Shown one piece after another: positions 5,772 to 51,151 of a stretch of DNA of 64,000 nucleotides. Position 1 is the first letter of the stretch. Every line of letters starts with the position of its first letter. Origin of the DNA: an uncultured Pseudomonadales bacterium (GTDB taxonomy: Bacteria > Patescibacteriota > Microgenomatia > UBA1400 > Chazhemtobacteraceae). The notes under the pieces are model-generated. The model saw nothing but the letters and a program-made list of their open reading frames with translations. It was not told where the DNA came from and did no database searches. Location of the stretch: the NCBI GenBank assembly GCA_964422035.1, contig CAYQZQ010000001.1, positions 587,786 through 651,785 on the forward strand. Direction: 5' to 3'. The translations under genes and the position numbers were made by a program.

Positions 5772-7037
5772 ATGAAAGTTGCAATTATTGGTGGAGGTTT
5801 TACTGGTTTGGCAGCGGCGATGTATTTGATAGATAGAGGTGTTGAAGTTGAGGTGTGGGAAGCAAATGATCGATTGGGTGGGCTAGCAAAGAGTTTTGAA
5901 GTTGAAGAATGGGATTGGAATTTGGAAAAATATTATCATCATGTTTTTGCAAATGATAGAAAAATAATTGATTTATCCCACAAGGTTGGCTGGCCAGTTT
6001 TTTTTAACAGGCCAGTAACTAATGTGTGGGCAGATGGAAAAGAAGAACAACTGGACTCGCCTATTTCACTTTTAAGCTATTCAGGGTTGAGCTGGTGGCA
6101 ACGAATACGCATGGGCGCAGGGCTGGCAAGTTTAAAGGTTATTTTTTGTAAAGAGTTAGGTCAAAAGCTTGATCAATACAAAACTAGCCAGATTTTGCCT
6201 AAGTTAATCGGCAAGAAAGCATGTCAGAAAGTGTGGGAACCTTTACTGATAGCTAAGTTTGGCAAATATGCAGATGAGGTTAATATGGCTTGGTTTTGGG
6301 CCCGAGTGGTTAAAAGAACAAGCAAGCTGGGGTATTTTGAGGGAGGATTTGGCAAATTAGCTGAAAAGATTGGTGATTATATAGAAAGCAAAGGTGGAGC
6401 AATAAGATTAAACAAGAAAGTTGAAAAGGTTGAGAGAGAGGGTAAAAAATTTGTGGTTAATGATGAAGAGTTTGACAAGGTATTGTTAACTGTTCCCTCT
6501 GGATTGGTAAATAATATTGTGGGAGAAAAAGTAATTGATTTGCCAGAAATAAACTATTTATGGGGGCAGACTCTTGTCTTGGAGATGAAGAAAAGCTTTA
6601 TTGAAAGTTATTGGTTAAATATCTTAGAAAGGAACTGGCCATTTTTGGTAGCGGTGGAACACACAAAGTTTATTGATAAAGAAAAGTACGGAGACAGTCA
6701 TGTTTTGTATTTGGGGAATTATCTTGAAGAGGATAACGAAAAACTTGATATGGAGAAGGGGGAGTTGTTGGAGTTGTTTTGGCCGTATTTGAAAAAGATT
6801 AACCCTAGTTTTGAAAAGAACTGGATAAAAAGAAGTTGGAAGTTTCAAAGTCCATACGCTCAACCAGTTTTTCCGGTCAATTATTCAGAAGAGATTCTGG
6901 ACATTAAAACTAAAATGGATGGTGTTTATATGGCAAGCATGAGCCAGGTATACCCTTGGGACAGAGGAACAAATTTTGCAGTAGACATTGGAGAAAGAGC
7001 AGCTGAGTTAATTTTGGAAGATCAAGATGATTCATGA
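5772..7037 (+). CDS. FAD/NAD(P)-binding oxidoreductase (amine-oxidase / UDP-galactopyranose-mutase-like superfamily)
   Basis: N-terminal Rossmann 'MKVAIIGGGFTGLAAAMYL...VEVWEANDRLGGLAKSF' (GxGxxG...E...GG dinucleotide motif). 421 aa. It overlaps the downstream membrane protein by 11 nt. Confidence 0.7.
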   Translation: MKVAIIGGGFTGLAAAMYLIDRGVEVEVWEANDRLGGLAKSFEVEEWDWNLEKYYHHVFANDRKIIDLSHKVGWPVFFNRPVTNVWADGKEEQLDSPISLLSYSGLSWWQRIRMGAGLASLKVIFCKELGQKLDQYKTSQILPKLIGKKACQKVWEPLLIAKFGKYADEVNMAWFWARVVKRTSKLGYFEGGFGKLAEKIGDYIESKGGAIRLNKKVEKVEREGKKFVVNDEEFDKVLLTVPSGLVNNIVGEKVIDLPEINYLWGQTLVLEMKKSFIESYWLNILERNWPFLVAVEHTKFIDKEKYGDSHVLYLGNYLEEDNEKLDMEKGELLELFWPYLKKINPSFEKNWIKRSWKFQSPYAQPVFPVNYSEEILDIKTKMDGVYMASMSQVYPWDRGTNFAVDIGERAAELILEDQDDS

Positions 7038-8958
7038 TTTAAATTGGTGGATAAATATTAGCTTAAGCCTGTTGGTGGTTCAAATAGTGATAGGTTCGTG
7101 GTGGTTAATTGGACCAGGAAAAAAATTGGTTGATGGTGGATGGGCATGGGGAAGATTGTCTGGATGGTTGTTTGTGTCCTTATTGATTTGGTGGGCTAGT
7201 CATTTGATGGCCACAAATTCATTATGGGTGGTTAGAGGGGTGATGAGTGGTTTGTTGAGTGTATTGAGCGCGATTGTTATTAAAAAAAGAAAAGAGTGGA
7301 GAGAGCAGTTTAAGAAAAAATGGAGGTTTATTTTAACGGAAGAGGTTTTGTTTTTTATTGGTTTGTTAGGAATGGGGATCGTGAGAGGATTTAAGCCAGA
7401 AATTTTAGGTCTTGAGAAATTTATGGATGCAGGATTTATTAATAGTTATTTAGAGTCGACAAGCTTGCCGGTAGAAGATATGTGGTTTGCGGGAGGGACG
7501 ATCAACTACTATAGCTTTGGTCATTTTATGGGGTCAACGATGCTTAAGTGGTGGGGTGTGGGAATTGGAGTTGGGTATAATTTGCTTTTAGCATTGTTGG
7601 CAGGGTTGATTTTCTCGGGCAGTTTTTCTGTAAGTGCTAATTTGATTAGCTTAAAGGATCAGGTTATTGAAAAGAAAGTCTTGATTGGTGGTTTTGTTTC
7701 GTCTTTGTTGGTTGTACTGGGCGGTAATAGTCATACTCTTTGGTACGGATTAAGTAACAGAGGGTGGAAAGGGTACTGGTATGCAGATGCTACTCGATTT
7801 ATTGAAAATTCTATTCATGAATTTGCAAGTTATAGCTTGGTAGTAAGTGATTTGCATGCACATTTATGGGCTTTGCCGATTGTATTGTTTTTACTCTTTT
7901 TGATGATAGGTTGGTACAAGTCGGGCAATAAGATTATTTGGGAGATAGGTTGGGGAATATTGGTGGGGGTTTTGGTGATGACAAATACTTGGGATGTAAT
8001 GGTGTATGGACTTCTTTTGTTAATATGGACGGGTTGGTTGATGATGAAGGATGAAATTGAAAGCAAGGTGGTGATAAGGGCTGGATTGGTTACTTTAGGG
8101 ATGGCAGGACTGGTTTCTATGGGGTGGTGGTTGAACTTTTCATCTATCGGCCAAGGTATAGAAGTGGTAGAAAATGGTTCGTTGTTGTGGCAAATGGCAG
8201 TGTTGTGGGGAGGGCATGGGGTTTTGACGATAATTGCAATTAGAAAGGGTTGGTTAAAAAACAATCTTTTAATAGCAAGCATGGGGATGGGAGCTTTGGT
8301 GTTAATTTTGATTCCGGAGTTGGTTTATTTGAAAGACATCTACCCTACTCACCCTAGGGCAAATACGATGTTTAAGCTGACCTATCAGGCAATGTTATGG
8401 ATGAGTTTATTGGGCGGATATGTTTTAGCTGCAGGAGAAAAAATTGAGAAGGCGGTGACGATTGTTTTAAGTATTTGCTTTTTAAGTTTTGCTTGGTTTG
8501 CGTACAGAGATTTTTATTATTTTAAAAGTTATCAGGGAATTGATGGTGAAGGGTGGATAAAACAAGAATATACAGATGACTGGAAGGGAATTGAATGGCT
8601 GAGGAAAAACATTAAAAGACGACCTGTTGTTTTAGAAGCGGTGGGAGAAAGTTATACAAAATATGCGCGAGTGTCAGTTTTTTCAGGAAAGCCTACTGTA
8701 TTGGGGTGGAGGGTGCATGAATGGTTATGGAGAGGAGGGTTTGAGAAAGTGGCAGAAAGGACTGAGGAGGTAAGAGTGATATATGAGAATACAAACAGTC
8801 AAGAAGCTGAGAATATCTTAGAGAAACACCAGGTGGAATACATATTTTGGGGGGAGAAAGAAAACGAAAAATATGATGTTGATGAAAAAGCAATAAGAGA
8901 CTTGGGAGAAGTGGTTTTTAAAAGCGGGAAAACTGAAGTGATAGAAATTACTGATTAA
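7027..8958 (+). CDS. Large polytopic membrane protein (at least 12 TM) with C-terminal soluble domain; GT-C-type glycosyltransferase or polymerase-like
   Basis: 643 aa. There are many Trp/Gly-rich TM helices across residues 1-480, then a soluble C-terminal domain of about 150 aa. It is coupled to the upstream FAD oxidoreductase and adjacent to the LCP gene. Confidence 0.55.
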   Translation: MIHDLNWWINISLSLLVVQIVIGSWWLIGPGKKLVDGGWAWGRLSGWLFVSLLIWWASHLMATNSLWVVRGVMSGLLSVLSAIVIKKRKEWREQFKKKWRFILTEEVLFFIGLLGMGIVRGFKPEILGLEKFMDAGFINSYLESTSLPVEDMWFAGGTINYYSFGHFMGSTMLKWWGVGIGVGYNLLLALLAGLIFSGSFSVSANLISLKDQVIEKKVLIGGFVSSLLVVLGGNSHTLWYGLSNRGWKGYWYADATRFIENSIHEFASYSLVVSDLHAHLWALPIVLFLLFLMIGWYKSGNKIIWEIGWGILVGVLVMTNTWDVMVYGLLLLIWTGWLMMKDEIESKVVIRAGLVTLGMAGLVSMGWWLNFSSIGQGIEVVENGSLLWQMAVLWGGHGVLTIIAIRKGWLKNNLLIASMGMGALVLILIPELVYLKDIYPTHPRANTMFKLTYQAMLWMSLLGGYVLAAGEKIEKAVTIVLSICFLSFAWFAYRDFYYFKSYQGIDGEGWIKQEYTDDWKGIEWLRKNIKRRPVVLEAVGESYTKYARVSVFSGKPTVLGWRVHEWLWRGGFEKVAERTEEVRVIYENTNSQEAENILEKHQVEYIFWGEKENEKYDVDEKAIRDLGEVVFKSGKTEVIEITD

Positions 8959-10015
8959 GGTTATTTTGGATATATTGGTGAAGAGCTTGCCAGTTATTAT
9001 CTCGAGGAATAAGGACCCATTGACCATCATAAGGGGCTTGATTAGTGGGGTGTTCTAAAATGCCTAATTCATTTTCTTGAGATTTTACAACTAACGGGAT
9101 CGAGCTTATGGATTTTGTATCAGCCATGAGAGTTAGACGAGCAAAAGCAGGGTATTCTGTCTGAGGAATGTCAGTGGTGATGTATTTTTGATATAAACCG
9201 AAGAGTTGGGAAATTTTTTGTGGTTTAAGTAAGGTTTTTTGAGAGAGAATTTTTTCTACAAAAGCCATGAGGACTTGTTGCTGGCGACGAGTGCGGGCAA
9301 AATCTGTTCCTTCCTCTCCTTGTGCATTGCGAGATCTGACGTATTTGAGAGCTCTGTCTCCGCTCATGATTTGTAGTCCGGCATCAAAATGAAGATGTTG
9401 ATAACGAGTACTCTCTGGATAGGCGTTTTCCATGCCGGGAATGGGGTATTTGTAGTCATCAAATGAGTTTTTAACATCGATATCAATACCTTCGACTAGA
9501 TCGATAGCTTTGGTAAAACCTTCAAAGTCTAGAGCAAAAGCGTAGTGAACTGGCAGTCCAGTTACCTCAGCAACTGAAGATTTGGCAAGAGTTAGCCCTT
9601 CACCTTGTTTTTTTTGCTCTCCGTAATAATAAGTGGCGTTTATTTTTGTCTTTAGAGAATCGACCCAAATGTCGCGAGGAATAGAGATCAAAGTGATCTT
9701 ACGACTGGGATGATGATAGGAAATAAGAAGAATGGAATCTGTTAAAAGCCTGCCTTGATGTCCCTCTCCTCCCATGCCCAGAAGTAGAACGTTAGTGTGG
9801 TCATTTGTGGTACGCAGTGTACTGGCAGGATTTTTAGTGATTGAGATAGCAGTGCTTGGTCCCTGCAACAAATTGTGAAAAAAATTTAAGGCTGGAGAAG
9901 AAAGGGAGTAAAAAATAAAAAGAACCACTCCTGTAAAGAGGATTAAGAAGGTGGTCTTAATTACTGGCAAGTGTTTGCCGAGCTTGCGTTGAATTTTTGA
10001 GATAAAACTACTCAC
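8948..10015 (-). CDS. LytR-CpsA-Psr (LCP) family cell-wall glycopolymer ligase
   Basis: N-terminal TM, then 'VLLLGMGGEGHQGRLLTDSILLISYHHPSRKITLISIPRDIWV', which is the canonical LCP core (D..R..D). 355 aa. Confidence 0.8.
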   Translation of the reverse strand: MSSFISKIQRKLGKHLPVIKTTFLILFTGVVLFIFYSLSSPALNFFHNLLQGPSTAISITKNPASTLRTTNDHTNVLLLGMGGEGHQGRLLTDSILLISYHHPSRKITLISIPRDIWVDSLKTKINATYYYGEQKKQGEGLTLAKSSVAEVTGLPVHYAFALDFEGFTKAIDLVEGIDIDVKNSFDDYKYPIPGMENAYPESTRYQHLHFDAGLQIMSGDRALKYVRSRNAQGEEGTDFARTRRQQQVLMAFVEKILSQKTLLKPQKISQLFGLYQKYITTDIPQTEYPAFARLTLMADTKSISSIPLVVKSQENELGILEHPTNQAPYDGQWVLIPRDNNWQALHQYIQNNLNQ

Positions 10016-12660: not shown

Positions 12661-13671
12661 ATGATTAGAAAAATAAAAGAGAGGGAAAGAGAAGAATTTA
12701 ATAAGCTCGCCAGTCATCCTTTACAGGCTTGGGAGTGGGGGGAGTTCCGTAAGGAAACTGATATTGCAGTACTAAGGTTGGGTCGATATGAGAGTGATCA
12801 GTTGATTGAAACAGCTCAGATTACCTTTCACAAGATTCCTAGACTACCCTGGTCTGTGGGATATTGGCCGAAGGGAAAAATTCCAAGCAAGCAGATGATT
12901 GAGGCAGTCAAAAAAGAAGCAGAAGTGCATAAGGCAATAATGATCAAGTTGGAGCCAAATATCTTAGCAGAGGAGGGCAAGAGTAAGATAGATGAGCTTA
13001 AGAAGGATTTTAGATTAGTTGAAGGCAGGTCACTGTTTACCAAATGGAGTTTTTGGCTGGATCTTAAAAAAGACACTGAAGATATTTTGATGGATATGAA
13101 GAATAAAACACGTTACAACATCCGGTACGCAGATCGGCAAGGAGTTGAAGTGGTTAGAGATAATTCTTGGGAAAGCTTTGATAAATACTGGCGACTGATG
13201 AAAAGAACTATGGATCGACAGAACTTTTATGCTCATGATAAGGAATATCACAAATTGATGTTTAAAAACCTAAAGGGGGAAATAGCGCAATTGTTTAGAG
13301 CTGAGTACAATGGAGAAACACTAACAGCTTGGGTTGTGTTTGTTTTAAATGGTGTTCTTTATTACCCATATGGAGCTTCGACTCGCAAGCATAGAAATGT
13401 ACAAGCTTCGTCGCGAATGACTTGGGAGGTTATAAAGTTTGGCAAGGATCGAGGTTGCACTTTGTTTGATATGTGGGGCAGCCCTGGACCAAAACCAGAA
13501 AAAAGTGATCCGTGGTATGGTTTTTGGAGGTTTAAAAAAGGATTTGGGGCAAGGATTGTAGAGTTTGTCGGCAGCTGGGATCTGGTTTTGAGTCCATTTT
13601 TATATTCAATCTATCGGATTGGAAATACTACAAGATGGAAGATTTTGCGCTGGAAAGCTAAGCTGAAATAA
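12661..13671 (+). CDS. FemAB-family aminoacyl-tRNA-dependent peptidoglycan peptidyltransferase (GNAT fold)
   Basis: 336 aa. The C-terminal signature 'YYPYGASTRKHRNVQASSRMTWEVIKFGKDRGCTLFDMWG...WYGFWRFKKGFGARIVEFVGSWDL' matches the FemAB pattern (YYyGAS...y.FKkgFGg..ve.iG.fdl). Confidence 0.6.
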   Translation: MIRKIKEREREEFNKLASHPLQAWEWGEFRKETDIAVLRLGRYESDQLIETAQITFHKIPRLPWSVGYWPKGKIPSKQMIEAVKKEAEVHKAIMIKLEPNILAEEGKSKIDELKKDFRLVEGRSLFTKWSFWLDLKKDTEDILMDMKNKTRYNIRYADRQGVEVVRDNSWESFDKYWRLMKRTMDRQNFYAHDKEYHKLMFKNLKGEIAQLFRAEYNGETLTAWVVFVLNGVLYYPYGASTRKHRNVQASSRMTWEVIKFGKDRGCTLFDMWGSPGPKPEKSDPWYGFWRFKKGFGARIVEFVGSWDLVLSPFLYSIYRIGNTTRWKILRWKAKLK

Positions 13672-13675
13672 CAAG

Positions 13676-14500
13676 ATGGTTGACTTAAGGCAAAGTGATT
13701 TATATGCTCATTATCAAGAATTGAGGGACTGGGAGGTATCAGAGGTTTTTGATAAGAAAGGTAAAGCTGTGCAGGTGTTTATCAAACACATGCCGGTGGT
13801 GAAAGTTTCTGTGCTTAAGTGCCAGAGATTTGAAAGAGTGCCTGACTGGAGTTTGTTTAAGAAGTTTAAAAAGAAGAATAGAGTTGTATATACAGTTTTG
13901 GAGCCTTTGGGCGGAAGTAGGGAAAACTACCAGAGAGAGGGTTATAAAGTTAATAAGAACTCTTATCTTCCTACTCAGACAGTGGTGATTTCTTTAAATA
14001 AAGAAAGGGACTGTTTGTGGAATGATTTGTCAAAAGATGCGAGAAAAACTATCAATGATAGTAGGGTGGAAATTAGAAAATTAGATGGCAAAGCTGAAAG
14101 GAATGATTTTTGGAAAAAATGGAATAGTGAAAGTAAAATTATTACTCCCAGTTGGAAAAGTTTTCAGGACTTAATAGAGAGTTTTGATAAGAACATGTGG
14201 CTTATGGGCGCGTTTTTAGATAAAGAAATGGTGGCTGGCACGATAGTTTTGATTGCTGAAAGGAGAGCGTATTATTATTATGCCTGGACCAGCTTGAGAG
14301 GCCGTGAAGCGGGCGGACAATACAAGCTAGTCTGGGAAAGTATTTTGAGACTCAAAAAAGAAGATGTTGAATTTTTTGACTTAGAAGGGGTTGAGGATGA
14401 AAGATGGCCGAGAAAGAGTTGGAGAGGTTTTTCGCGTTTTAAAAGCAAATTTGGAGGTGAGAAGGTGTCTTTTTTGGGAAGTTTTTCTAAGTGGTTTTAA
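13676..14500 (+). CDS. FemAB-family paralogue (shorter, 274 aa)
   Basis: 'YYYAWTSLRGREAGGQYKLVWESILRLKKEDVEFFDLEG...FSRFKSKFGGEKVSFLGSF' repeats the FemAB C-terminal core. It sits immediately downstream of the first paralogue. Confidence 0.5.
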   Translation: MVDLRQSDLYAHYQELRDWEVSEVFDKKGKAVQVFIKHMPVVKVSVLKCQRFERVPDWSLFKKFKKKNRVVYTVLEPLGGSRENYQREGYKVNKNSYLPTQTVVISLNKERDCLWNDLSKDARKTINDSRVEIRKLDGKAERNDFWKKWNSESKIITPSWKSFQDLIESFDKNMWLMGAFLDKEMVAGTIVLIAERRAYYYYAWTSLRGREAGGQYKLVWESILRLKKEDVEFFDLEGVEDERWPRKSWRGFSRFKSKFGGEKVSFLGSFSKWF

Positions 14501-21667: not shown

Positions 21668-23179
21668 ATGAATAGATTATTATCTCCCATTAGAAAATTA
21701 ATTATAAAATACCCAAGAAGGTCAGAAAGAGTCTTGGAGATCTTGCCAGGTTTTGTATCTTGGAGTTTAATTTTATTTCCAGTTTGGGGCTCATTTTTTT
21801 GGCCTATCGGGGTAGCTTATTACATTATCGCCTTTGATGTTTACTGGTTTTACCGATCAGTATCCATGGGGGTAGCAGTTTTGGTAACTCATTTTAGAAT
21901 TAAGGCAGCTAGTAGTTATGATTGGATGGGCGATGTTAACGATTTCCCCGGATGGGAGGAGATGAGACACGCGATTGTAATACCAAACTACAACGAGCCA
22001 ACGCATCTTCTTGAAAGAGCTTTAGATAGTTTAGTTGCACAAACATTCCCAAGCAACAAGATCATTCCGATCATTGCGTGTGAGGAAAGAGCTGGAAAAG
22101 AGTTGTTTGAAGAAAGAAAAAGGGTATTAAAAGATAAATTTGAAGGCAAGTTTGATAAATTGATGTTCACTTTGCATCCGGCAGATATTGAGGGAGAAGT
22201 GGCTGGGAAATCAGCAAATGCTGCTTGGGCTTCTAAGAAGTTTAGAGAGGAAAAAGAGAAACATCCCGAATGGGAGGATAAGTATATGACCATTTCTTCT
22301 ATGGACATGGATATGGTTTATCACCCTAATTATTTTGCTAATTTGACTTACAACTTTCTAGATAATCCCGATAGGTACAGAAGGATCTGGCAAGGCGCAA
22401 TTGTTTACTACAACAACATCGATCAAATCCCGGGCCCGATGCGAGTATTTAATAGAATATCTTCGATCTTTCAGATGGCTTTATTGGTCAGGCAAGACAG
22501 ATTGATTAATTTTTCTACTTATTCAATGTCGGTTAAGCTAATGGAAGAGGTGGGATACTGGGATGCTGATGTTATTCCAGAAGATTATAGAATGTTTTTT
22601 AAGAGCTACTTTACTACTGGGGGAGAAGTTGAGGTTGAGCCGATTTTCTTGATTATTTCAGGGGATGCAGCAGAGTCTCACAATTTCTGGGGGACATTTA
22701 AAAACACTTATACACAAGTAAAAAGATGGGCATGGGGGGCAAGTGACGATGCATATATTTTGAAGAATTATTTTTTAGACACAGAGGCAGACTTTGGCGA
22801 TAAAACAGTAAGGGTGTTTAAGATTCTTGAAGATCACTTTTTGTGGCCTGTTAATTGGTTTATCGTTACTTTAGGAGCCACTTTGCCTCCCCTTTTGAAT
22901 GAAGATTTTTCGAGAACAATCATCGGTAAAACATTACCTCAGATAGCAAGTGCGATCTTAACTGTGTCGTTGGTTAGCTTAGTTGCAAGCCTATTTGTTG
23001 AGTTTAGAGCAAGGCCTGATTTAAAAAATTCTTCTTTGTTCAAGAAGATCATGGCTCCTCTTGAATTGATACTTTTACCATTTGTTGGGCTTTTCTTTTC
23101 AGCATTACCGGGACTGGAAGCACACACTCGTTTAATGCTTGGGAAATATATTGAATACCGAGTGACTGAGAAAGTTTAA
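21668..23179 (+). CDS. Membrane-bound family-2 glycosyltransferase (processive beta-glycan-synthase-like)
   Basis: TM helices flank a cytoplasmic GT-A domain: 'AIVIPNYNEP' (GT2 start), a 'DMDMV' DxD motif and a C-terminal multi-TM region. 503 aa. Confidence 0.7.
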   Translation: MNRLLSPIRKLIIKYPRRSERVLEILPGFVSWSLILFPVWGSFFWPIGVAYYIIAFDVYWFYRSVSMGVAVLVTHFRIKAASSYDWMGDVNDFPGWEEMRHAIVIPNYNEPTHLLERALDSLVAQTFPSNKIIPIIACEERAGKELFEERKRVLKDKFEGKFDKLMFTLHPADIEGEVAGKSANAAWASKKFREEKEKHPEWEDKYMTISSMDMDMVYHPNYFANLTYNFLDNPDRYRRIWQGAIVYYNNIDQIPGPMRVFNRISSIFQMALLVRQDRLINFSTYSMSVKLMEEVGYWDADVIPEDYRMFFKSYFTTGGEVEVEPIFLIISGDAAESHNFWGTFKNTYTQVKRWAWGASDDAYILKNYFLDTEADFGDKTVRVFKILEDHFLWPVNWFIVTLGATLPPLLNEDFSRTIIGKTLPQIASAILTVSLVSLVASLFVEFRARPDLKNSSLFKKIMAPLELILLPFVGLFFSALPGLEAHTRLMLGKYIEYRVTEKV

Positions 23180-23332
23180 TCGAAATGGGCGGACAAAGGT
23201 AAGGTGAAGAGTTGTTAATATAAGGGCATTGGAGTAGTCGAAAAGTTTATGTTGTGAAATGGTGAGGCTAAGATTAAGAAATTATTACTCATTGTTGGCC
23301 ATGACTTGTGTGATAAGGAAAAAAATAATTAA

Positions 23333-24841
23333 ATGAAGATATTGATGAAAAAAAGATGGCAAGCTTTTAAAGACTGGGTCGAGAATAATCGAGGGGTAAT
23401 TATAGTTTTGTTAATTGTGTCTTTATTGCGGGTTCCGAACTTGTTTGAGCCAGCATGGTATGGAGATGAGGGGATTTATTTAGCGGTGGGACAGGGGATA
23501 AAGCGTGGTTTGGTTTTATACAAAGAGATCTTTGATCATAAGCCACCAATTATTTATTGGTTAGCTGCCTTATCTGGTGAGCTATTGTGGTTTAAGGTGG
23601 TTGGAATCATAGCTAATTTTTTAAGTATAGTAGTGATACATAAGATTAGTGAGAAGTTGTTTAGTAAAAAGAATGTTTCATTTGTAGTTACGTTGTTTTT
23701 TGGTGTAATTACTACTCTTCCTTGGATTGAAGGGAATATTGTTAATGCTGAGTTGTTGTTTATCTTGACAACAAGTTTGGCAGTATGGATTTTGATCAGG
23801 AAGAGAATGATGAATGTTAAGTGGGTTGATTTATTATTTGCAGGAATTATGTTGGGGGTTGGTGTCTTACTAAAAGCCCCCGTTTTATTGGATATAGCAG
23901 CTGTTTCTCTTTGGTTTATTGCCTTTAGAAAGGGATTGAAGATCTATTGGGGAGAGATTTGGAAAGTGGTGGTTTTGGGAGTTGGGGTTCTTATTCCTTC
24001 AGCTTTGGCTGGTATATATTTTTGGATAGAGGGAGTCTTTAATGAATATTTAATTGCAGCATGGGGTCAAAACTTTTCTTATCTTAGTTCTTGGGGGGGC
24101 GGAGAAGGATTATCTACGGGGGCTGCTGAAGGTGGGGGATTAATGATGAGGGGGATTGTTTTAGTAGTTTGGTTGTTGATTGTTTGGTGGTGGACTAGAA
24201 AAGAAAAAGTGAAAATGAGATTGATTGTGGTATGGTTTGGGATGGCTTTGTTTGGAGCTCTATTGGCGGGAAGACCTTATCCTCATTACTTAATCCAAAT
24301 CGCCCCGGCGGGAGCTTTGTTAATTGGAGTAATTTGGGAGACAAAAAATAAAGGAACTGTGCTTAGCGGTTGCTTGGGACTGATGTTATTGGTAGTAGCT
24401 ATTTTTAAATATGATTTTGGTTTTTATAAATCAGTAGAGTATTACAAAAATTTTGGACGTTATGTAGCTGGCAAGATAGGACAAACAGAATTTTATGATA
24501 GTTTTGACTGGAGGGTAAGTAGAAATTATCAAATCGGTAAATATATAAGAGAAAGGACAGATAAAAATGATCGAATTTATATTTGGAGTGATGAACCTAA
24601 TATTTACGTTCTTTCAGAGAGATCTCCAGCAGGTAAGTGGGTGATGGCTTATCATATTGATATTTTTGACAAAAAAGATGGGGTTTTGGAAGCTATTAAA
24701 GAAGAAAAGCCTAAATTTATTCTTTGGCCTAAAGAAGCAAGAGAGTTTAAAGCTTTGTCCTCCTATAGAGAAGCATGGTATATACAAGTAGAAGAATTTC
24801 AAGGGATGAAGGTTTATCGCAGAATGAATTGGAAGCAGTGA
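23333..24841 (+). CDS. GT-C fold glycosyltransferase (PMT/ArnT/GT39/83-like polyprenyl-phosphate-sugar dependent transferase)
   Basis: 502 aa. 'PAWYGDEGIYLAVGQ' sits in the first extracytoplasmic loop (DE motif of PMT/ArnT-type enzymes). It has about 11 TM helices and a C-terminal soluble domain. Confidence 0.55.
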   Translation: MKILMKKRWQAFKDWVENNRGVIIVLLIVSLLRVPNLFEPAWYGDEGIYLAVGQGIKRGLVLYKEIFDHKPPIIYWLAALSGELLWFKVVGIIANFLSIVVIHKISEKLFSKKNVSFVVTLFFGVITTLPWIEGNIVNAELLFILTTSLAVWILIRKRMMNVKWVDLLFAGIMLGVGVLLKAPVLLDIAAVSLWFIAFRKGLKIYWGEIWKVVVLGVGVLIPSALAGIYFWIEGVFNEYLIAAWGQNFSYLSSWGGGEGLSTGAAEGGGLMMRGIVLVVWLLIVWWWTRKEKVKMRLIVVWFGMALFGALLAGRPYPHYLIQIAPAGALLIGVIWETKNKGTVLSGCLGLMLLVVAIFKYDFGFYKSVEYYKNFGRYVAGKIGQTEFYDSFDWRVSRNYQIGKYIRERTDKNDRIYIWSDEPNIYVLSERSPAGKWVMAYHIDIFDKKDGVLEAIKEEKPKFILWPKEAREFKALSSYREAWYIQVEEFQGMKVYRRMNWKQ

Positions 24842-24853
24842 TATACTGTAGGC

Positions 24854-25201
24854 ATGGAAAAAGATGTCGAGAAAGATAAGAAAGGGATTGAAATAGTCAT
24901 AATTGTGTTGGCCGTTGTGTGGTTTCTTTCAGCAGCACTACTGCTGGTTTTTTGGAAAAAGCTCCCCCCAGAGATGCCGTGGTTTTATTCTTTGCCGTGG
25001 GGAGAAGAACAGTTGATAAGTAAAGAGGGGATGGTGTTTGTAATGGGTGGATTAGGAGGAGTGATAGGATTAGATATCTTTTTTGCCAAAAGACTGGAAA
25101 AAGAAGATGAATTTTTGACAAAGATGTTGCTGTGGGGAGCATTGGCTACAACAGGATTGGTTTTATTAAGTTGGATTAAGGTGTTGATAATCATTTTATG
25201 A
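24854..25201 (+). CDS. Small membrane protein (3 TM)
   Basis: 115 aa and hydrophobic. It is abutted by GT genes on both sides and shares a 4-nt overlap with the next gene. Confidence 0.4.
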   Translation: MEKDVEKDKKGIEIVIIVLAVVWFLSAALLLVFWKKLPPEMPWFYSLPWGEEQLISKEGMVFVMGGLGGVIGLDIFFAKRLEKEDEFLTKMLLWGALATTGLVLLSWIKVLIIIL

Positions 25202-26295
25202 ACATGGAAGAAATGAGGTTAATATGGGGACCACTGTTTTTATCAATGGTTGTTTCTTGGGTTGTTAGTAAGCTGGTTATAAAGATTTATAAAAAAATAG
25301 GGTGGGTAATTGACCCTAAAAAACAAAAACACCCAGCACATGTCCACAAAAAACCGGTACCTAAAGGGGGAGGGATTTCAGTTTTTTTTGGTAGCGTAGC
25401 GGCAATGATGGTTTTTTTACCCTTAGACGGACATTTGATAGCAATCATTTTGGCGGGTTTGCTTTTGGTATCCGTGGGCGTTTGGGATGATGCAAGTGAT
25501 ATAAGCCCGATATTGAGATTGTTGGTAAATTTTTTGGCGGCAGGCATTGTAATTGGAGCAGGTATTGGAATTGCCTATGTAACCAACCCTTTTGGATCAG
25601 GAATAATTCATTTGAATCAACCACAATTAAGCTTTTATCTTTTGGATAAGCAAAGAAGCATCTGGCTTTTAGCTGATTTATTAGCTTTGCTGTGGATTCC
25701 TTTTATGATTAATGCTGTTAACTGGAGTAGTGGGCTAGACGGACAAATTGCAGGGGTGGTACCGATAGCTGCTGCTACTATTGGAATACTATCTTTTAGA
25801 TTTAGTGCTGATGTTACCCAGTGGCCGGTAGCTATTGCGGCTTTTTCTTTAGCGGGTGCTTTTTTGGGATATTTGCCATATAGTTTTTATCCCCAGAAAT
25901 CTATGCCTGGATATGGCGGGGCAGGTTATGCAGGGTTCATGTTGGCAGTTTTAGCAATTTTATCTACAACTAAGGTGGGAACGGCGATGGTGGTTTTGGG
26001 TGTTCCATTAATCGACGCTATATATGTAGGTGTAAGCAGAATTATTAAAGGGAAATTGCCTTGGAAGGGTGGGAGAGAGCATCTGCATCATAAGTTAATG
26101 GATCTGGGGTGGGGAAAAAGGCGAATAGCAGTTTTTTACTGGTTGGTTACTGGGTTATTGGGGTTGATTGCATTAAGTTTGAACAGTAGACAGAAGCTAT
26201 ATACAATGGTGGCAATAGCTGTTATTTTAGGAGGCTTTTTTATATGGGTATCGCAAGGGCACTTGTTAGAACTGCAAGACCAAGACAATGGTTAA
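25198..26295 (+). CDS. Polyprenyl-phosphate N-acetylhexosamine-1-phosphate transferase (GT4, WecA/TagO/MraY superfamily)
   Basis: 'VGVWDDASDISP' (the DDxxD Mg2+ motif of MraY/WecA), 'NAVNWSSGLDG' (NxxNxxDGxDG) and about 10 TM helices. Confidence 0.75.
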   Translation: MNMEEMRLIWGPLFLSMVVSWVVSKLVIKIYKKIGWVIDPKKQKHPAHVHKKPVPKGGGISVFFGSVAAMMVFLPLDGHLIAIILAGLLLVSVGVWDDASDISPILRLLVNFLAAGIVIGAGIGIAYVTNPFGSGIIHLNQPQLSFYLLDKQRSIWLLADLLALLWIPFMINAVNWSSGLDGQIAGVVPIAAATIGILSFRFSADVTQWPVAIAAFSLAGAFLGYLPYSFYPQKSMPGYGGAGYAGFMLAVLAILSTTKVGTAMVVLGVPLIDAIYVGVSRIIKGKLPWKGGREHLHHKLMDLGWGKRRIAVFYWLVTGLLGLIALSLNSRQKLYTMVAIAVILGGFFIWVSQGHLLELQDQDNG

Positions 26296-27176
26296 AAAAT
26301 GTGGCTTTATTGGCTCCGCTTATATTTAGCGGACTTTTAATTGTACCTGGCAAGCTGGAGACTGCAATAAATGCGGTTATCATATTTACGATTTTAACCA
26401 GCAGTGTCTATATTCTTAATGATTTGTTGGATTTGCCAGCTGACAAAAAACATCCTTTTAAGAGAATGCGCCCTTTGCCTTCTGGAGATTTACCCATAGG
26501 GATGGCTGTGTTTGCGATGATGTTTGGAATAATAGTTTCTTTAAGTTTGGCGTATTCAATGAACTTCTTCTTCTTTTTGATTGCGTTGACTTATTTTATT
26601 TTGTCAGGAATTTTATATACATTGTGGTTTAAGCAAGTACCAATTGTAGATGTAATTACTATTGCATCAGGGTATGTATTAAGAGTGTATGCCGGCTCCG
26701 TGGTGATCGATGCTCATATGAACGTGTGGTTTTTGTTAACAGTCATATCACTATCTTTATTTTTGGCGGTAGGAAAGAGAAGAAGTGAGATGACACTTTT
26801 GTCTGAGTCTGGTGAAACTAAAGAGATAAGAAAAACTTTGAAAAGATATACGGGAGGATTGCTTGATATTTATACGGCGATGTTTGCAACTGCAACCTGG
26901 CTTACATATGCATTATTTACTTTTAATCAGCCAAAGATTTTTTTAGGAGGAAAGTTTTTGACTTTAATGTCAGTTTTACCAAGAACATTTATGAATGAAA
27001 AATGGTTAATGGTAACTATTCCTTTTGTAGTATATGGGGTAATGAGGTACTTGCAGCTGATTTATGAAAAAAATGAAGGAGAAAGTCCTGAGAAGGTATT
27101 GCTTAGTGACAAACCTTTAGTGTTAACTGTGTTAACTTGGGGGGTTTTGGTGATTGGCTTGATATACGGGGTATAA
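26244..27176 (+). CDS. UbiA-family polyprenyl-phosphate transferase (decaprenyl-phosphate phosphoribosyltransferase/DPPR-synthase-like)
   Basis: 'SVYILNDLLDLPADKKHP' (NDxxDxxxD first Asp-rich motif) and a second Asp-rich region 'VIDAHMNVW'. It has 8-9 TM helices. It overlaps the upstream GT4 gene by 52 nt in another frame. Confidence 0.65.
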   Translation: MGIARALVRTARPRQWLKNVALLAPLIFSGLLIVPGKLETAINAVIIFTILTSSVYILNDLLDLPADKKHPFKRMRPLPSGDLPIGMAVFAMMFGIIVSLSLAYSMNFFFFLIALTYFILSGILYTLWFKQVPIVDVITIASGYVLRVYAGSVVIDAHMNVWFLLTVISLSLFLAVGKRRSEMTLLSESGETKEIRKTLKRYTGGLLDIYTAMFATATWLTYALFTFNQPKIFLGGKFLTLMSVLPRTFMNEKWLMVTIPFVVYGVMRYLQLIYEKNEGESPEKVLLSDKPLVLTVLTWGVLVIGLIYGV

Positions 27177-27181
27177 AAGAT

Positions 27182-28087
27182 TTATTTTTTTCCGGTGGTG
27201 ATTACAGCATCATAGTTGGAGTCTAGGTTGAGCTGGCCAGAAAGAGATGCTGAGAAAGATCCGCTTAGGGCATCGCTTAAAAGGTTGAAGAGTTGGTTGG
27301 ATGCGTCAGGATGTAGGCTGATTTGAGTTTGTTGGTAGTCGAAGGTGCTAGCGTTGGCTGTTTCAATTGATGTAAAGCCGGCTTCTACCAAGAGGTCTTC
27401 AGCTTGCCCTGCTTGTCCAGGGGTGCCAGTGCCATTTAATACTTGAATCGAGTATTGAGAGAGGTCAAAAGCGGTGTCTTCGATTTGGGCTGACTGAGTG
27501 CCAAGTATGGGTTCCTGTAGATCAGTTTGTTGGGACAATTGGGCAGAGATTGTTAGGCGATATCCGGGCAGAGTACGAGCTCTGATTGTCTTATCCTTAA
27601 ATCCGGGGGATGTGAGGGCAATGACGTGCTCACCAGTTTGAATTGTTTCTAGCGAGATGGGAGTAAAACCTTTGGGGGCACCATCAACTGAGACATTGAC
27701 GGAGTCTGGCAAGGTAGAAATGGCTAGCTCTGTGTCTTTTTGAGATGATATTTTTTCAAAAGAGAGAATGTAACCATGATTTTGATCAGAATCCTTGCTT
27801 AGCTTACGGTCGACGACAGTGAGAATGTTGGGACTTAAAGTTATTGTAGTCTGCCAGGGAGAAAGTTGCGGATCTTGAGGGGTAAGTTGAAGGGTGTATT
27901 GACCAGGTTCTAGATCTTCTTTTACTAAAGGTGTTGTTCCCAGTGAAGTACCATCAAACATAACAGTGGATTGGGGGGTAGAGGTGACCTGAAGCCCAGC
28001 CTTTTTTTTGTCGAGAAATGGTATTTTAAGTTGACAGGCTGAAAGGAAGAAGGAAAGAGAGATAAAAACTAATATTTTTTTAAACAT
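27182..28087 (-). CDS. Lipoprotein with PEGA domain and LytR_C-terminal domain
   Basis: Signal plus lipobox-like 'FFLSAC'. 'VTSTPQSTVMFDGTSLGTTPLVKEDLEPGQYTLQLT' is PEGA-like. 'IQVLNGTGTPGQAGQAEDLLVEAGFT' is a LytR C-terminal domain. Confidence 0.55.
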   Translation of the reverse strand: MFKKILVFISLSFFLSACQLKIPFLDKKKAGLQVTSTPQSTVMFDGTSLGTTPLVKEDLEPGQYTLQLTPQDPQLSPWQTTITLSPNILTVVDRKLSKDSDQNHGYILSFEKISSQKDTELAISTLPDSVNVSVDGAPKGFTPISLETIQTGEHVIALTSPGFKDKTIRARTLPGYRLTISAQLSQQTDLQEPILGTQSAQIEDTAFDLSQYSIQVLNGTGTPGQAGQAEDLLVEAGFTSIETANASTFDYQQTQISLHPDASNQLFNLLSDALSGSFSASLSGQLNLDSNYDAVITTGKK

Positions 28088-34986: not shown

Positions 34987-37485
34987 TCAAGTTTGTAGGT
35001 CATCAGATCCAGTCTTAGTCGATTCTTTTTTGTCAACCATCATGGTTAGATTATAACGTCCTTGATCATCTATTTCATAGAGTTTAACTTTTATCTGGTC
35101 TCCTTTATGGGCCCATTGATGTGGATCTTTGACGTATTCTTTTGAGATATTTGAGATGTGAACCAGTCCTTTGGTGTCGGGCAGAAATTCAACAAAGATG
35201 CCGTAGTCTTTGATGTTAGTTACCGAGCCGATGTATGTCTCGCCTACTTTGGGTTGGGTTTGTAATGGTTGTTGGGGAAGAATTTGGGGTGATTGGGGCT
35301 GGTTTTGGGATGGCTCTTGCTTGGTTTGACTGTGGCGTTGCTTTGAAGAGGTGATAACTTTTTGGCGATTGTGAGTGCGATTTTGTTCAGGTAGGGGCAA
35401 AGTGTAAGCGGGGAAGGGACTGGAAATGCGGCCGTCGATGGTGAGTTTGTTGATGATTTGATAGCGACCAAGGTTGACTAAGTCGTCCTGGGTATATAAA
35501 TCACCGAATTCTTGTTTTATTCTGTCAGCGTCATCAGCTCCGACTACAAATGTAGCAATGGTGCCTACGTTGCCAAAAATAGCTTTTTGAATTTCTTCAG
35601 GTAACTGAGCTGTATATTGGTTTGCAAGAGTTAAGCCAAGACGATATTTTCTGGCTTCGGAGAGAATTTTTATGAATGATTGAGTGGCAAAGTTTTGAAA
35701 CTCGTCAACATATAAGAAGAAATCTTTTCTTTCTTCTTCGGGAACGTTAACTCTGTTCATGGCTGCAAGTTGGAATTGGGTAATAAACATGGCACCAAGA
35801 AGAGCAGCGTTAGCTTCGCCTAATTTGCCTTGGGATACGTTAAGAATAAGGATTTTGCCTTGATCCATGATTTCTTCCAAGTCTATTGTTGAAGTGGGAC
35901 TTTCTAGCACTTTTCTTATGGTGGGGCTGCCGATGAATTGACCTACTTTGTTTAAGATAGGGGCCACCGCTTCGGTTTGGAGTCGCTCTGAATACTGATT
36001 AAATTCTTTTTCCCAAAAATCAATTAGCACTTGATGCTCGATGGCATCGAGACTATTAACAATTTTTGAACGAAACTGGCCATTGGTGAGGATTTTGGGA
36101 ACATCAAGCAAAGTTGAGCCGGGGGTTTCAACAAGAGTCAAAAGAGTGTTGCGGAAGATGTACTCCATGCGTGGCCCCCATGAATAATGAAAAAGTTTAT
36201 GAAAGATAGAGACGATGCCTTCCATGACGAGCTCTTTGTGCTCTGGTCGTTTTACTTCAAGTGGATTGAGGTGGAAAGGACGATCCATGTTGGTAGGATC
36301 AAGATAAGCAACATCTTTGATGCGATGGTCTGGTACGAAATCCAGAAGTATATCTGAAAGGTCTCCATGAGGGTCGATGACGGCCAGTCCTTGATCTTTT
36401 TGCAGATCTGAGATGGCCATGTTAGCCATTAACCAAGATTTACCTGTGCCTGATTTGCCTAAGATATAAAAATGTCGACGACGATCGGTAAGCCTGATAC
36501 CAAATGGAGCGAGTCTGTTTTTGAATTCGGTTTTGGCGTAGATGGTTAGACTTTTCTCTTCTTGAGAAGTTGTGGATTTGGCAACTGGCAGGTTATCTGG
36601 CGGCTCTCCCCGCAGGGTTTTGCCCCAGGCAAGGTTGCGAATTCCGACGTGTTGCAGGCTAGGAAAGTGAAAAAGACTGGCGAGTTCAACAACATTTAAG
36701 ACTTGATTTTTGGGTATAAAGTTGGGGGTGCGATTAATAAGTGATGAGATGAATTTTTGTTTGCGCTTGGGTTTTTGAAGTGAGAAAGAGTTGCCCTGGT
36801 TGAGAGTATAGGTATGGTAGGCACTGGATAGTTGAATGAGGAGACTTTGGGCTTGATTGGGATCTTTGGAGGTAGTGAGAATTCTTAGGTCAGCTTGGTA
36901 GGCTGGTGAGGAAATCTTGTCTTCGATAAGGTTGGCTTGAGGGTGGGCTTTGAAAACTTCAGGATCTGGGCTGACTCCTTTTTCGATGATGTGTCGGCTG
37001 CCTTGAGCCCAACCAGAGGGAGCGGCGGTAAGGAGTATTTGAATAATGGCAGCAGAGTGAGGAGTGGTTTTGGAGAGAACCCCTAGTATGGCTGAGAGGG
37101 GGTCTGTGTCTTCAAATTGATTGTAGGTTTTAAGAGGAAAATGATAGGGAGAGGTTAGCTGCAGCTGACCGGTACAAGTATGACCGTAGTTAGTCCATCC
37201 TGGTAAGTAGTCCTCCATTTGAGTGATAACTGAAGTTGGGTATTGGGCGGCGATTTGATTGCGGAGAAGTTGTTGATGTTTTTGGGGGGCGGTGACGATG
37301 AAGAATACTCTTTGGTTGAGGCTGGCAATTTCCAGACTAATGGTGGGTTGATTGTTTAAAAGTCTTTGAAAAAAGTTATCACTTAAAATGTTGTTTAAAC
37401 CAGAGAGAAACTGAGCAGACGCTTCTGGAGTATATTCGGAGTCTTTAGCAGTTCGGACTTCTAAGATTGTGCGTTGGGCAGGCAT
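34987..37485 (-). CDS. VirD4/TrwB/TraD-like P-loop ATPase (type IV coupling-protein-like) with C-terminal S1 RNA-binding domain
   Basis: 832 aa. 'RRRHFYILGKSGTGKSWLMANMAISDLQKDQGLAVIDPHGDLSDIL' (the TrwB_AAD-type Walker A plus 'DPxGD'). Walker B 'FFLYVDEFQNF'. A Gln/Pro-rich linker, then the S1 fold 'VGETYIGSVTNIKDYGIFVEFLPDTKGLVHISNISKEYVKDPHQWAHKGDQIKVKLYEID'. Confidence 0.6.
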   Translation of the reverse strand: MPAQRTILEVRTAKDSEYTPEASAQFLSGLNNILSDNFFQRLLNNQPTISLEIASLNQRVFFIVTAPQKHQQLLRNQIAAQYPTSVITQMEDYLPGWTNYGHTCTGQLQLTSPYHFPLKTYNQFEDTDPLSAILGVLSKTTPHSAAIIQILLTAAPSGWAQGSRHIIEKGVSPDPEVFKAHPQANLIEDKISSPAYQADLRILTTSKDPNQAQSLLIQLSSAYHTYTLNQGNSFSLQKPKRKQKFISSLINRTPNFIPKNQVLNVVELASLFHFPSLQHVGIRNLAWGKTLRGEPPDNLPVAKSTTSQEEKSLTIYAKTEFKNRLAPFGIRLTDRRRHFYILGKSGTGKSWLMANMAISDLQKDQGLAVIDPHGDLSDILLDFVPDHRIKDVAYLDPTNMDRPFHLNPLEVKRPEHKELVMEGIVSIFHKLFHYSWGPRMEYIFRNTLLTLVETPGSTLLDVPKILTNGQFRSKIVNSLDAIEHQVLIDFWEKEFNQYSERLQTEAVAPILNKVGQFIGSPTIRKVLESPTSTIDLEEIMDQGKILILNVSQGKLGEANAALLGAMFITQFQLAAMNRVNVPEEERKDFFLYVDEFQNFATQSFIKILSEARKYRLGLTLANQYTAQLPEEIQKAIFGNVGTIATFVVGADDADRIKQEFGDLYTQDDLVNLGRYQIINKLTIDGRISSPFPAYTLPLPEQNRTHNRQKVITSSKQRHSQTKQEPSQNQPQSPQILPQQPLQTQPKVGETYIGSVTNIKDYGIFVEFLPDTKGLVHISNISKEYVKDPHQWAHKGDQIKVKLYEIDDQGRYNLTMMVDKKESTKTGSDDLQT

Positions 37486-51141: not shown

Positions 51142-51151
51142 AAGAAGTATT

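Follow-up and report, generated by a model that had tools for sequence, protein, structure and literature searches.

A conserved five-gene cluster of Microgenomates bacteria as a candidate envelope-glycan locus using a lipid-carried pentofuranose

We report on five neighbouring genes in a 64-kb stretch of a Microgenomates (Patescibacteria) genome (contig CAYQZQ010000001.1; this whole stretch of 64,000 nucleotides is called the window below, and positions are counted from its first letter). They encode two membrane glycosyltransferases (GT), one of the GT2 type and one with a predicted GT-C fold, a small membrane protein, a relative of the phosphotransferases MraY and WecA, and a UbiA-family enzyme. 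We read the cluster as a conserved Microgenomates envelope-glycan locus that combines two machineries and employs a lipid-carried pentofuranose, likely ribose, an interpretation that we hold with slightly better than even confidence. Within it, the best-supported mechanism would be the use of a lipid-linked pentofuranose donor outside the membrane, because a putative polyprenyl-phosphate 5-phosphoribosyltransferase (PPPRS) and a GT-C enzyme predicted to resemble ArnT are encoded side by side.

The open reading frames (ORFs) were all found, consecutive and on the plus strand, as a preliminary description of this DNA had claimed; they are listed here with the spacer between the first two. The label "GT4" refers to the Pfam family Glycos_transf_4 (MraY/WecA phosphotransferases) and not to family GT4 of CAZy.

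21668-23179, plus strand: GT2 gene, 503 aa
23180-23332, no strand: spacer between the GT2 and GT-C genes, 153 nt, an insertion hot spot in relatives
23333-24841, plus strand: GT-C gene, 502 aa
24854-25201, plus strand: gene of the small membrane protein, 115 aa
25198-26295, plus strand: "GT4" gene, 365 aa
26244-27176, plus strand: UbiA gene, 310 aa

Each ORF has hundreds to thousands of homologues, so that all five can be taken as real genes; the homologues come from Microgenomates Patescibacteria, namely Woese-, Shapiro-, Blackburn-, Beckwith-, Ames- and Collierbacteria. A pattern scan of the GTDB species representatives yielded 364 stretches encoding relatives of the GT-C protein; the best 80 of these loci, all apparently from Microgenomates, were analysed together with three metagenome loci and the window, giving 84 loci. 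The gene order GT2, GT-C, small protein, GT4 is retained in essentially all of them, with core gaps of a few nucleotides or overlaps in the relatives, and 49 of the 84 (the window included, about 60%) also carry the UbiA gene. The expectation that such a combination would be out of place in a small-genome organism is thus not borne out, since it is a conserved trait of the Microgenomates lineage. Many public records of metagenome-assembled genomes that bear this cluster and synteny carry titles naming 'uncultured Gammaproteobacteria', 'Pseudomonadales', a 'Clostridia bacterium' or 'Nevskiaceae', which look like mislabels or placeholders (they include loci L008, L009, L016, L017, L020-L022, L060 and others).

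The locus is a conserved and evolvable envelope-glycan locus, not the oddity of one genome. In most relatives the gap between the GT2 and GT-C genes is 1-54 nt, while 15 loci have additional envelope genes at this point, over 0.8-5.8 kb. The inserted genes include those for a second GT-C protein (425-450 aa, with the motif SLWGDEAFSA), a 560-aa membrane protein like YfhO/PTPS_related, MsbA-like ABC exporters, a 246-aa GT2 and a UXS-like short-chain dehydrogenase (SDR; epimerase/dehydratase). Loci with insertions include L005, L009, L018, L023, L025, L029, L044, L047, L049, L055, L057, L071, L073 and L082.

The UbiA protein is, as strongly as sequence allows such an assignment, a phosphoribosyltransferase of the PPPRS type, that is, of the kind of the decaprenylphosphoryl-5-phosphoribose (DPPR) synthases. 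It scores 213.8 bits on the NCBIfam equivalog model for decaprenyl-phosphate phosphoribosyltransferase (NF008978, cut-off 207) and 216.2 bits on the sister model NF008977, where it stays under the cut-off of 234, and it matches the Mycobacterium tuberculosis enzyme Rv3806c (PDB 8j8j) with E 3.8e-34. The likeness to DPPR synthases that had been proposed, along with an NDxxDxxxD motif (here NDLLDLPAD), is borne out by these scores, and the protein does not group with menaquinone or haem O prenyltransferases: the haem O synthase model gives only 37 bits, and that for UbiA, the 4-hydroxybenzoate prenyltransferase, 24 bits.

The residues that bind phosphoribosyl pyrophosphate (PRPP), Mg and decaprenyl phosphate in the structure of Rv3806c (PMC10994848) were mapped onto the 49 UbiA orthologues, and 13 ligand residues were compared (R22, K28, Y70, N73, D77, K87, R90, Q135, Y138, K143, Y157, K191 and K208). 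In the window protein 12 of the 13 are identical, the sole change being Q135 to Ser. The equivalents of R22, Y70, N73, D74, D77, D81, K87, R90, Y138, K143 and K191 are invariant in all 49 orthologues. The K28 equivalent is Lys in 48 and Arg in one, that of Q135 is Gln in 45, and the positions of Y157 and K208 vary. We thus suggest that the enzyme would make polyprenyl-phosphate-ribose-5-phosphate from PRPP.

The 502-aa GT-C protein of the window gave no Pfam (E<=0.01) or NCBIfam match, nor any PDB match by sequence or profile, and its assignment comes from a predicted structure. The AlphaFold (AF2) model, built with 42 homologues, has a mean predicted local distance difference test (pLDDT) of 91.9 and a predicted TM-score (pTM) of 0.91. 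All 21 PDB matches that Foldseek returned for it at E<=0.001 are GT-C enzymes (AglB/STT3/PglB, ArnT, DPY19, AftA and Pmt4), with the best TM-score for ArnT (5f15, 0.58). At the level of the family, Pfam PMT_2 is matched by 17 of the 42 members (best 2.6e-9) and PMT by 3 of the 42, the window protein itself matching neither; the homologues also bear the precomputed label PF27757. We are therefore confident that the predicted fold is that of a GT-C enzyme of the ArnT (GT83)/PMT (GT39) kind, closest to ArnT, as had been suggested, and we predict for it a sugar donor that is linked to polyprenyl phosphate and used outside the membrane.

GT-C enzymes of this kind bear catalytic acidic residues in their first extracytoplasmic loop. 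In the family of the window protein, Y43, D45 and E46 are invariant directly after the first transmembrane (TM) segment (WYGDEG), where W42 and G44 occur in at least 90% of members; E133, N138, E140, K70 and the residues of R314-P-Y-x-H-Y are invariant as well. A similar mix of acidic and basic/aromatic residues has been implicated in ArnT. The mix also recalls ORF12 of family GT136, a likeness of residue type and not of superposed structures, and the motifs themselves (D-E-x-x-Y after the first TM segment, R-P-Y later) are only loosely alike. In ORF12, residues D31, E34, Y35, H106, R349 and Y350 have been implicated (PMC11127046).

The fold comparison also raises the question of whether the GT-C protein might act as an oligosaccharyltransferase or ligase, moving a whole polyprenyl-pyrophosphate-linked glycan onto a protein or other acceptor. 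The glycan would be initiated by the MraY/WecA-like protein, a member of the polyprenyl-phosphate N-acetylhexosamine-1-phosphate transferase (PNPT) superfamily that is encoded two genes downstream, and a PEGA/LytR_C lipoprotein encoded just beyond the cluster, a conserved neighbour described below, could be the acceptor. The lowest Foldseek E-values do belong to AglB, STT3 and PglB. The best TM-score is nonetheless that of ArnT, and the Pfam matches of the family are to PMT_2 and PMT, not to STT3; the protein has only 502 residues, with a C-terminal domain of about 90 residues in the model, and no WWDYG-type motif is found among the invariant columns of the family alignment. We regard whole-glycan transfer as rather improbable.

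In the preferred reading, the first machinery starts at the cytoplasmic face, where the UbiA enzyme would transfer ribose-5-phosphate from PRPP to polyprenyl phosphate. The lipid-linked ribose-5-phosphate would be dephosphorylated by an enzyme encoded outside the locus and then flipped, the small membrane protein being the sole candidate flippase encoded locally; finally, outside the membrane, the ArnT/PMT-like GT-C enzyme would pass the pentofuranose on to an acceptor in the envelope. While the components of this module are recognizable in sequence and fold, their activities are what we infer. In the 64 kb there is no other GT-C of the PMT_2 type and none of the GT-C paralogue kinds seen in relatives (the fold of a DUF2298 protein at 7027-8958 was not tested), so that the UbiA product has its nearest consumer in the adjacent GT-C enzyme. 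As to the sugar, ribofuranose is the most likely, and we favour it over arabinofuranose because no epimerase was seen nearby in the window; the UXS-like gene of a few relatives is likewise absent from these 64 kb.

The closest proven system, by analogy, is the three-component pentofuranose pathway of Citrobacter youngae O1/O2, the prototype in which ORF15 (PPPRS-PRP), ORF14 (a MATE flippase) and ORF12 (the GT-C enzyme that founded family GT136) add ribofuranose outside the membrane, as was proven experimentally (Kelly et al. 2024, PMC11127046). The window shares with it a UbiA-family phosphoribosyltransferase with the N/D-rich loop NDxxDxxxD beside a GT-C protein whose closest solved relative is ArnT, and it would share the logic of adding a pentofuranose outside the cytoplasm from a lipid-monophosphate donor. 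The two genes lie within 1.4 kb on the same strand, an arrangement kept in 49 loci. The Citrobacter PPPRS has a fused HAD phosphatase domain, whereas the window UbiA has none and no separate phosphatase is encoded nearby; and where Citrobacter has a MATE flippase, the window, lacking MATE and SMR proteins, offers only the small three-segment membrane protein as a candidate. The UbiA gene of the window is in addition coupled to an MraY-like phosphotransferase gene and linked to a synthase-type GT2, and its host is a Patescibacterium. Our best reading is that the locus includes a variant of the three-component pentofuranose system, which would depart from it in having no phosphatase or known flippase, in containing a synthase GT2 and a coupled MraY-like enzyme with an altered metal site, and in belonging to the Patescibacteria.

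The Citrobacter pathway itself resembles the mycobacterial decaprenylphosphoryl arabinose (DPA)/arabinan pathway, and the preliminary description had seen mycobacterial arabinan logic in the locus. This is partly apt. The UbiA protein matches Rv3806c at the level of an orthologue, with the PRPP- and lipid-binding residues conserved, and as in mycobacterial arabinogalactan assembly, a GT-C enzyme, a WecA/MraY-family initiator and a LytR-CpsA-Psr (LCP) transferase are found in the same genome region. The 64 kb of the window do not, in contrast to the mycobacterial pathway, contain DprE1 or DprE2, an Rv3807c-like phosphatase or an equivalent of the GtrA/SMR-type Rv3789. The GT-C protein is small at 502 aa, is closer to ArnT, and does not have carbohydrate-binding modules such as those carried by the Emb/AftD enzymes (PMC11127046). 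The GT2 is predicted to be a membrane synthase, unlike an enzyme of the GlfT type.

One could nevertheless imagine that the mycobacterial scheme holds in full, with DprE1/DprE2-like enzymes encoded elsewhere in the genome and the GT-C protein acting as an arabinofuranosyltransferase that builds an arabinan on a WecA-primed polymer. The DPPR-synthase identity of the UbiA protein, the presence of AftA among the structural matches of the GT-C model, the PNPT and LCP genes, and an SDR gene that adjoins the cluster in 5 related loci (the window is not one of them) would all fit this. A search for DprE1- and DprE2-like genes, run on the window, found none: Pfam/NCBIfam scans of about 57 ORFs, the large non-overlapping ORFs of the 64 kb, returned no DprE1-like FAD oxidase (FAD_binding_4) and no DprE2-like SDR (adh_short). 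Nor does any DprE1/DprE2-like gene consistently accompany UbiA in the 49 loci, and the GT-C protein is structurally nearer to ArnT than to AftA (TM-score 0.58 vs 0.46). We therefore consider the full mycobacterial scheme improbable, if somewhat less so than whole-glycan transfer.

The second machinery of the preferred reading would provide an acceptor or anchor. Here the GT4 protein would charge polyprenyl phosphate with a sugar-1-phosphate, giving rise to a lipid-pyrophosphate-linked glycan that could pass to peptidoglycan by way of an LCP transferase encoded 12 kb away, and the GT2, resembling hyaluronan synthase (HAS) and cellulose synthase, would polymerise and export a beta-linked polysaccharide.

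The GT4 protein has the Pfam domain Glycos_transf_4 (73.9 bits, cut-off 27), and it lies far below the equivalog cut-offs of the superfamily, with 77.3 bits against 326 for WecA (TIGR02380), 50.9 against 192 for mraY and 57.7 against 450 for the archaeal MraY-like model. A profile of its family aligns end to end with the MraY structure 5jnq (79 bits) and reaches 25 bits with human GPT. Features shared with the PNPT superfamily (MraY/WecA/GPT), in alignment to MraY over the whole length of the protein, are the DD pair, the loop NxxNxxxGxDGQ and HxHH; invariant within the family are DD 97-98 (the DDxxD motif, VWDDASDI in the window), N172, GxxGQ 179-183 and HxHH 295-298. On this evidence the GT4 is assigned as a divergent polyprenyl-phosphate sugar-1-phosphate transferase of the MraY/WecA type, closer to MraY than to GPT.

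The Asp of the (F/V)(M/F)GD motif binds Mg in structures of MraY and GPT; MraY cannot do without this Mg-binding Asp, and WecA and GPT conserve it too. In the GT4 family MPGY(G/S) stands throughout in place of FMGDxGS, so that the Asp conserved in the solved MraY structures aligned to the family is lost, with Tyr at this position of the GD motif in every member examined. No acidic residue occurs in the MPGY segment of the 79 locus orthologues or of the 12 commonest variants among database homologues, which cover 98 of 120. Of the earlier label of an initiating N-acetylhexosamine-1-phosphate (HexNAc-1-P) transferase, the DDxxD motif and the Glycos_transf_4 membership stand, whereas the specific activity was an assumption, the protein being far below the WecA cut-off and lacking the Mg-binding Asp. 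Two further acidic residues, D205 and D273, are invariant and might substitute for it.

The GT2 protein matches Pfam Glyco_trans_2_3 (29.8 bits, cut-off 27), with Glycos_transf_2 below its cut-off at 17.4 bits. As with the GT-C protein, searching the PDB by sequence or profile gave nothing useful, and only the comparison of predicted structures worked: the AF2 model (pLDDT 86), with helix bundles at its N- and C-termini, has Chlorella virus HAS and the BcsA cellulose synthase as its top Foldseek matches in the PDB (E 4e-10). The family alignment shows invariant GKSxN (180-184), SxDxD (211-215), PED (304-306) and QxKRW (350-354). At the C-terminus, YRVTEK (497-502) is nearly invariant and recalls FxVTxK, a type of gating loop found in processive synthases beside the WGTxxK type, but it is flexible in the model (pLDDT <50) and placed differently from that of BcsA. 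Processive synthases, which both build and export a polymer with beta linkages, are defined by DxD, QxxRW and the gating loop FxVTxK (PMC10592267); their GT-A domain is packed on a transmembrane channel. The DxD, ED and QxxRW motifs are shared by BcsA, hyaluronan synthase and chitin synthase/NodC, among which the best structural matches of the window GT2 are found; compared with BcsA, sequence similarity is weak, and there is neither a PilZ domain nor a BcsB-like partner. We conclude that the GT2 is, by its motifs and predicted fold, a membrane-integrated processive enzyme of the hyaluronan/cellulose-synthase type. The membrane GT2 that had been described is thus present, although as a synthase and not as an ordinary GT2 elongating a lipid-linked glycan. 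We know of no Bcs operon in which a processive GT2 is genetically linked to a GT-C and a PNPT gene.

The adjacency of a GT2, a GT-C closest to ArnT and a small membrane protein also recalls the ArnC/ArnT/ArnE-F and GtrA/GtrB/GtrX systems, which have three components and act in periplasmic glycosylation. GT2 enzymes of the GtrB/ArnC/DPMS type are short (about 300-330 aa), have one or two C-terminal helices, match Glycos_transf_2 and carry no QxxRW. The window GT2 differs from them in its QxxRW, ED and gating-loop-like motifs and its processive-synthase fold, and a role as a lipid-sugar synthase of this type that feeds the GT-C enzyme was ruled out by its 503 aa, its QxxRW and that fold. The small protein in turn matches no GtrA or SMR model and has three hydrophobic segments of TM length, as read from its sequence, with a conserved loop LPPxVPLFYSxPWGExQL. 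It has no Pfam or NCBIfam match, only weak matches to DUF1648 in 4 of 43 orthologues. It holds the same position in 78 of the 84 loci. An exhaustive search found 510 relatives, and a Rosetta-stone search among the best 150 of these 510 found no fusions, all 150 being stand-alone proteins of 91-159 aa. We consider it a candidate accessory subunit or lipid-sugar flippase.

The junctions between the genes bear on how the two machineries may be produced together. The overlaps of 4-52 nt previously described exist at two of them, small protein/GT4 (4 nt, ATGA) and GT4/UbiA (52 nt). GT2 and GT-C are instead 153 nt apart, GT-C and the small gene 12 nt, and these gaps cannot be closed since the ORFs already begin at their first possible start codons. 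The GT2 gene starts 9 nt after the stop codon of tatD, which directly follows metG, so that transcription may set in at a point upstream of the cluster. The 153-nt spacer has no significant RNA fold (z 0.68) and no terminator call, and its single promoter-like match (23301-23329) is at the chance rate of the region; a regulatory RNA or terminator there was thus ruled out.

The long GT4/UbiA overlap is genuine, and its two elements are located as follows.

26244-26295, plus strand: overlap of the GT4 3' end and the UbiA 5' end, 52 nt, out of frame
26230-26234, plus strand: GGAGG Shine-Dalgarno sequence for UbiA, within Leu-Gly-Gly codons of the last GT4 helix

The GGAGG, formed by the GT4 codons TTA GGA GGC, precedes the UbiA ATG by 9 nt; most of the loci whose overlap is long have a GGAGG- or GGAG-like element about 8-12 nt 5' of the start of UbiA. 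The overlap is conserved: it measures at least 4 nt in 45 of the 49 UbiA-carrying loci (window included), 23-76 nt in 42 and exactly 52 or 55 nt in 25. UbiA is read in the -1 frame relative to GT4, its conserved Trp-Leu-Lys codons enclose the GT4 stop codon, and the conserved GT4 tail D-x-D-N-G is the other reading frame of UbiA RPRQW. Among the UbiA codons within the overlap is that of R12, which corresponds to R22 of Rv3806c, a functionally important residue whose mutation removes 93% of activity (PMC10994848). Because this Arg is encoded inside the overlap, UbiA does not start downstream of it. A programmed frameshift that would fuse GT4 and UbiA was rejected: there is no conserved slippery heptamer, while the Shine-Dalgarno sequence and the ATG/GTG start are conserved. 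With its embedded ribosome-binding site, the conserved long overlap is a clean example of constrained dual coding.

As far as can be judged from these junctions, translation of the small gene, of GT4 and of UbiA is coupled, through the 4-nt overlap and through the 52-nt overlap with its Shine-Dalgarno sequence. This argues for co-ordinated production of two enzymes that would both consume polyprenyl phosphate, GT4 and UbiA. One might go further and speculate that the MraY-like GT4, its usual Mg-binding Asp lost, does more than prime undecaprenyl phosphate and acts on, or in complex with, the phosphoribosyl-lipid made by UbiA, for example with the 5-phosphate of polyprenyl-phosphate-ribose-5-phosphate as its acceptor, in the making of a ribofuranose wall glycopolymer of Microgenomates. 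This would explain both the absence of an encoded phosphatase and the conserved overlap of 52-55 nt. If true, a ribofuranose wall glycopolymer would have gone unrecognised in Microgenomates and perhaps in many Patescibacteria, but we give the idea only a slim chance.

Several observations weigh against our interpretation of the locus as a whole. The most important is that in 29 loci the GT4 gene is followed directly by the PEGA gene, with UbiA missing and the other four genes kept, so that the GT-C enzyme cannot depend on a UbiA encoded in cis everywhere; the earlier description of one operon for one glycan is, for the same reason, not supported. The flanks of the UbiA-carrying clade (genes for a Trp-repressor-like protein, metG, tatD and glyceraldehyde-3-phosphate dehydrogenase, GAPDH) are syntenic as well, and since this synteny of metG, tatD and GAPDH is also conserved, adjacency partly reflects the relatedness of the genomes. 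The scans of the window ORFs found no PAP2 or HAD phosphatase and no MATE, SMR, GtrA or Wzx flippase. The activity of the GT4 protein is uncertain, given that it lacks the Mg-binding Asp of the aligned MraY structures. Finally, the acceptor, the identity of the sugar and the polymer are all deduced from the kinds of enzymes encoded.

A sister clade retains the other four genes but does without UbiA: the 29 loci concerned make up a clade of their own, whose flanks differ (class A penicillin-binding proteins and ribulose-phosphate epimerase). This leads to the view that the cluster consists of two independent modules, in which the core (GT2, GT-C, small protein and GT4) has no need of the UbiA product, its GT-C enzyme using another polyprenyl-phosphate-sugar, and UbiA is a later addition that feeds a different GT-C, for example the paralogues with SLWGDEAFSA. 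Essentially every one of the 84 loci has the core and 49 have UbiA, and this paralogue of 425-450 aa occurs in 14 loci with UbiA as compared with 3 without it. Against independence, no paralogue of this type lies within the 64 kb of the window, the GT4 overlap appears to couple the translation of UbiA to that of the core, and genomes without UbiA here may carry it at another locus. No flanking family that co-varies with UbiA points to pathway genes, the differences being clade-specific synteny. Given that UbiA is dispensable in the sister clade, a core GT-C enzyme working on another donor remains a substantial rival, although on balance we think it unlikely.

It could also be argued that the genes are neighbours by inherited order only and do not cooperate, and the synteny of the Trp-repressor-like, metG, tatD and GAPDH genes in the UbiA-carrying clade would be consistent with this. 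The four-gene core keeps its order in the other clade despite the replacement of its flanks (by class A penicillin-binding proteins and others), its genes overlap or lie a few nucleotides apart, the five products are all membrane proteins that belong to glycan metabolism, and other envelope-glycan genes insert specifically between GT2 and GT-C. We consider mere inheritance of gene order very unlikely.

Each enzyme of the locus is of a known kind, but the combination of the five genes is not described in the literature that we searched: searches on Patescibacteria or the candidate phyla radiation (CPR) together with DPPR synthase, GT-C or the cluster returned no description, and the main text of the Citrobacter study mentions neither Patescibacteria nor 'Candidatus' or candidate phyla (PMC11127046). 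The Patescibacteria represent a very large and almost entirely uncultured part of bacterial diversity, with tiny genomes, and since they live attached to other cells their surface chemistry, essentially uncharted, is central to their biology. The conservation of the locus across the Microgenomates genomes examined suggests that lipid-carrier-dependent surface glycosylation, including a PRPP-derived pentofuranose donor, is kept despite extreme genome reduction. On our reading, the three-component pentofuranose systems would reach into a new phylum and take in a new gene arrangement, and the locus supplies enzymes that can be tested: a phosphoribosyltransferase whose active site is that of Rv3806c, a transferase resembling ArnT, an unusual relative of MraY and a compact synthase.

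Two further genes of the window may contribute to the system.

27182-28087, minus strand: predicted PEGA/LytR_C lipoprotein (Pfam: two PEGA domains, 65 bits; LytR_C, 40.5 bits)
8948-10015, minus strand: LCP glycopolymer transferase (Pfam LytR_cpsA_psr, 109 bits; TIGR00350, 78 bits, cut-off 62)

The PEGA protein has an N-terminal FLSAC lipobox, as read from its translation, and its gene converges on the cluster; it stands downstream on the opposite strand in 72 of the 84 loci, with or without UbiA. It may belong to the system as an envelope partner or acceptor. The LCP transferase, 12 kb upstream, is a candidate for attaching a polyprenyl-pyrophosphate-linked polymer to peptidoglycan, if it is indeed linked to the cluster. 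Together with FemAB-family and Wzy_C-like genes, it places the cluster in an envelope-glycopolymer context.

Other genes of the window were recorded in passing. At 5772-8958 on the plus strand, an FAD oxidoreductase (NF005560, 393 bits, HpnE/CrtI-like) overlaps by 11 nt the gene of a polytopic DUF2298/Chlor_Arch_YYY membrane protein (7027-8958; TIGR03662, 378 bits); the pair converges on the LCP transferase gene (8948-10015, minus strand) and may be another envelope module. Two adjoining FemAB-family genes, of the kind concerned with peptidoglycan interpeptide bridges, lie at 12661-14500 (plus strand). At 47603-52405 (minus strand), the gene of a 948-aa DUF4012 protein is found within about 700 nt, on the same strand, of that of a Wzy_C/O-antigen-ligase-like membrane protein, and a 139-aa RNase H is encoded between them. 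Type IV secretion- or conjugation-like ATPases are encoded at 34987-37485 and 61010-63705 (both minus strand), among them a HerA/TraD-like protein with an S1 domain and TraG/VirB4-like and TraC-like proteins. A PilN-like gene opens a run of small ORFs without matches (801-2389, plus strand), and the run is followed by a 462-aa protein (2410-3798, plus strand) with purple-acid-phosphatase N-terminal, Big_13 and CarboxypepD_reg domains.

The base composition of the window is strongly skewed, with 17237 G against 8675 C on the top strand (GC skew +0.33). The skew is positive over genes of both strands and keeps its sign at dnaA/dnaN (54572-57394); in related Microgenomates loci it ranges from -0.33 to +0.42, and extreme skew thus appears to be a property of the lineage.

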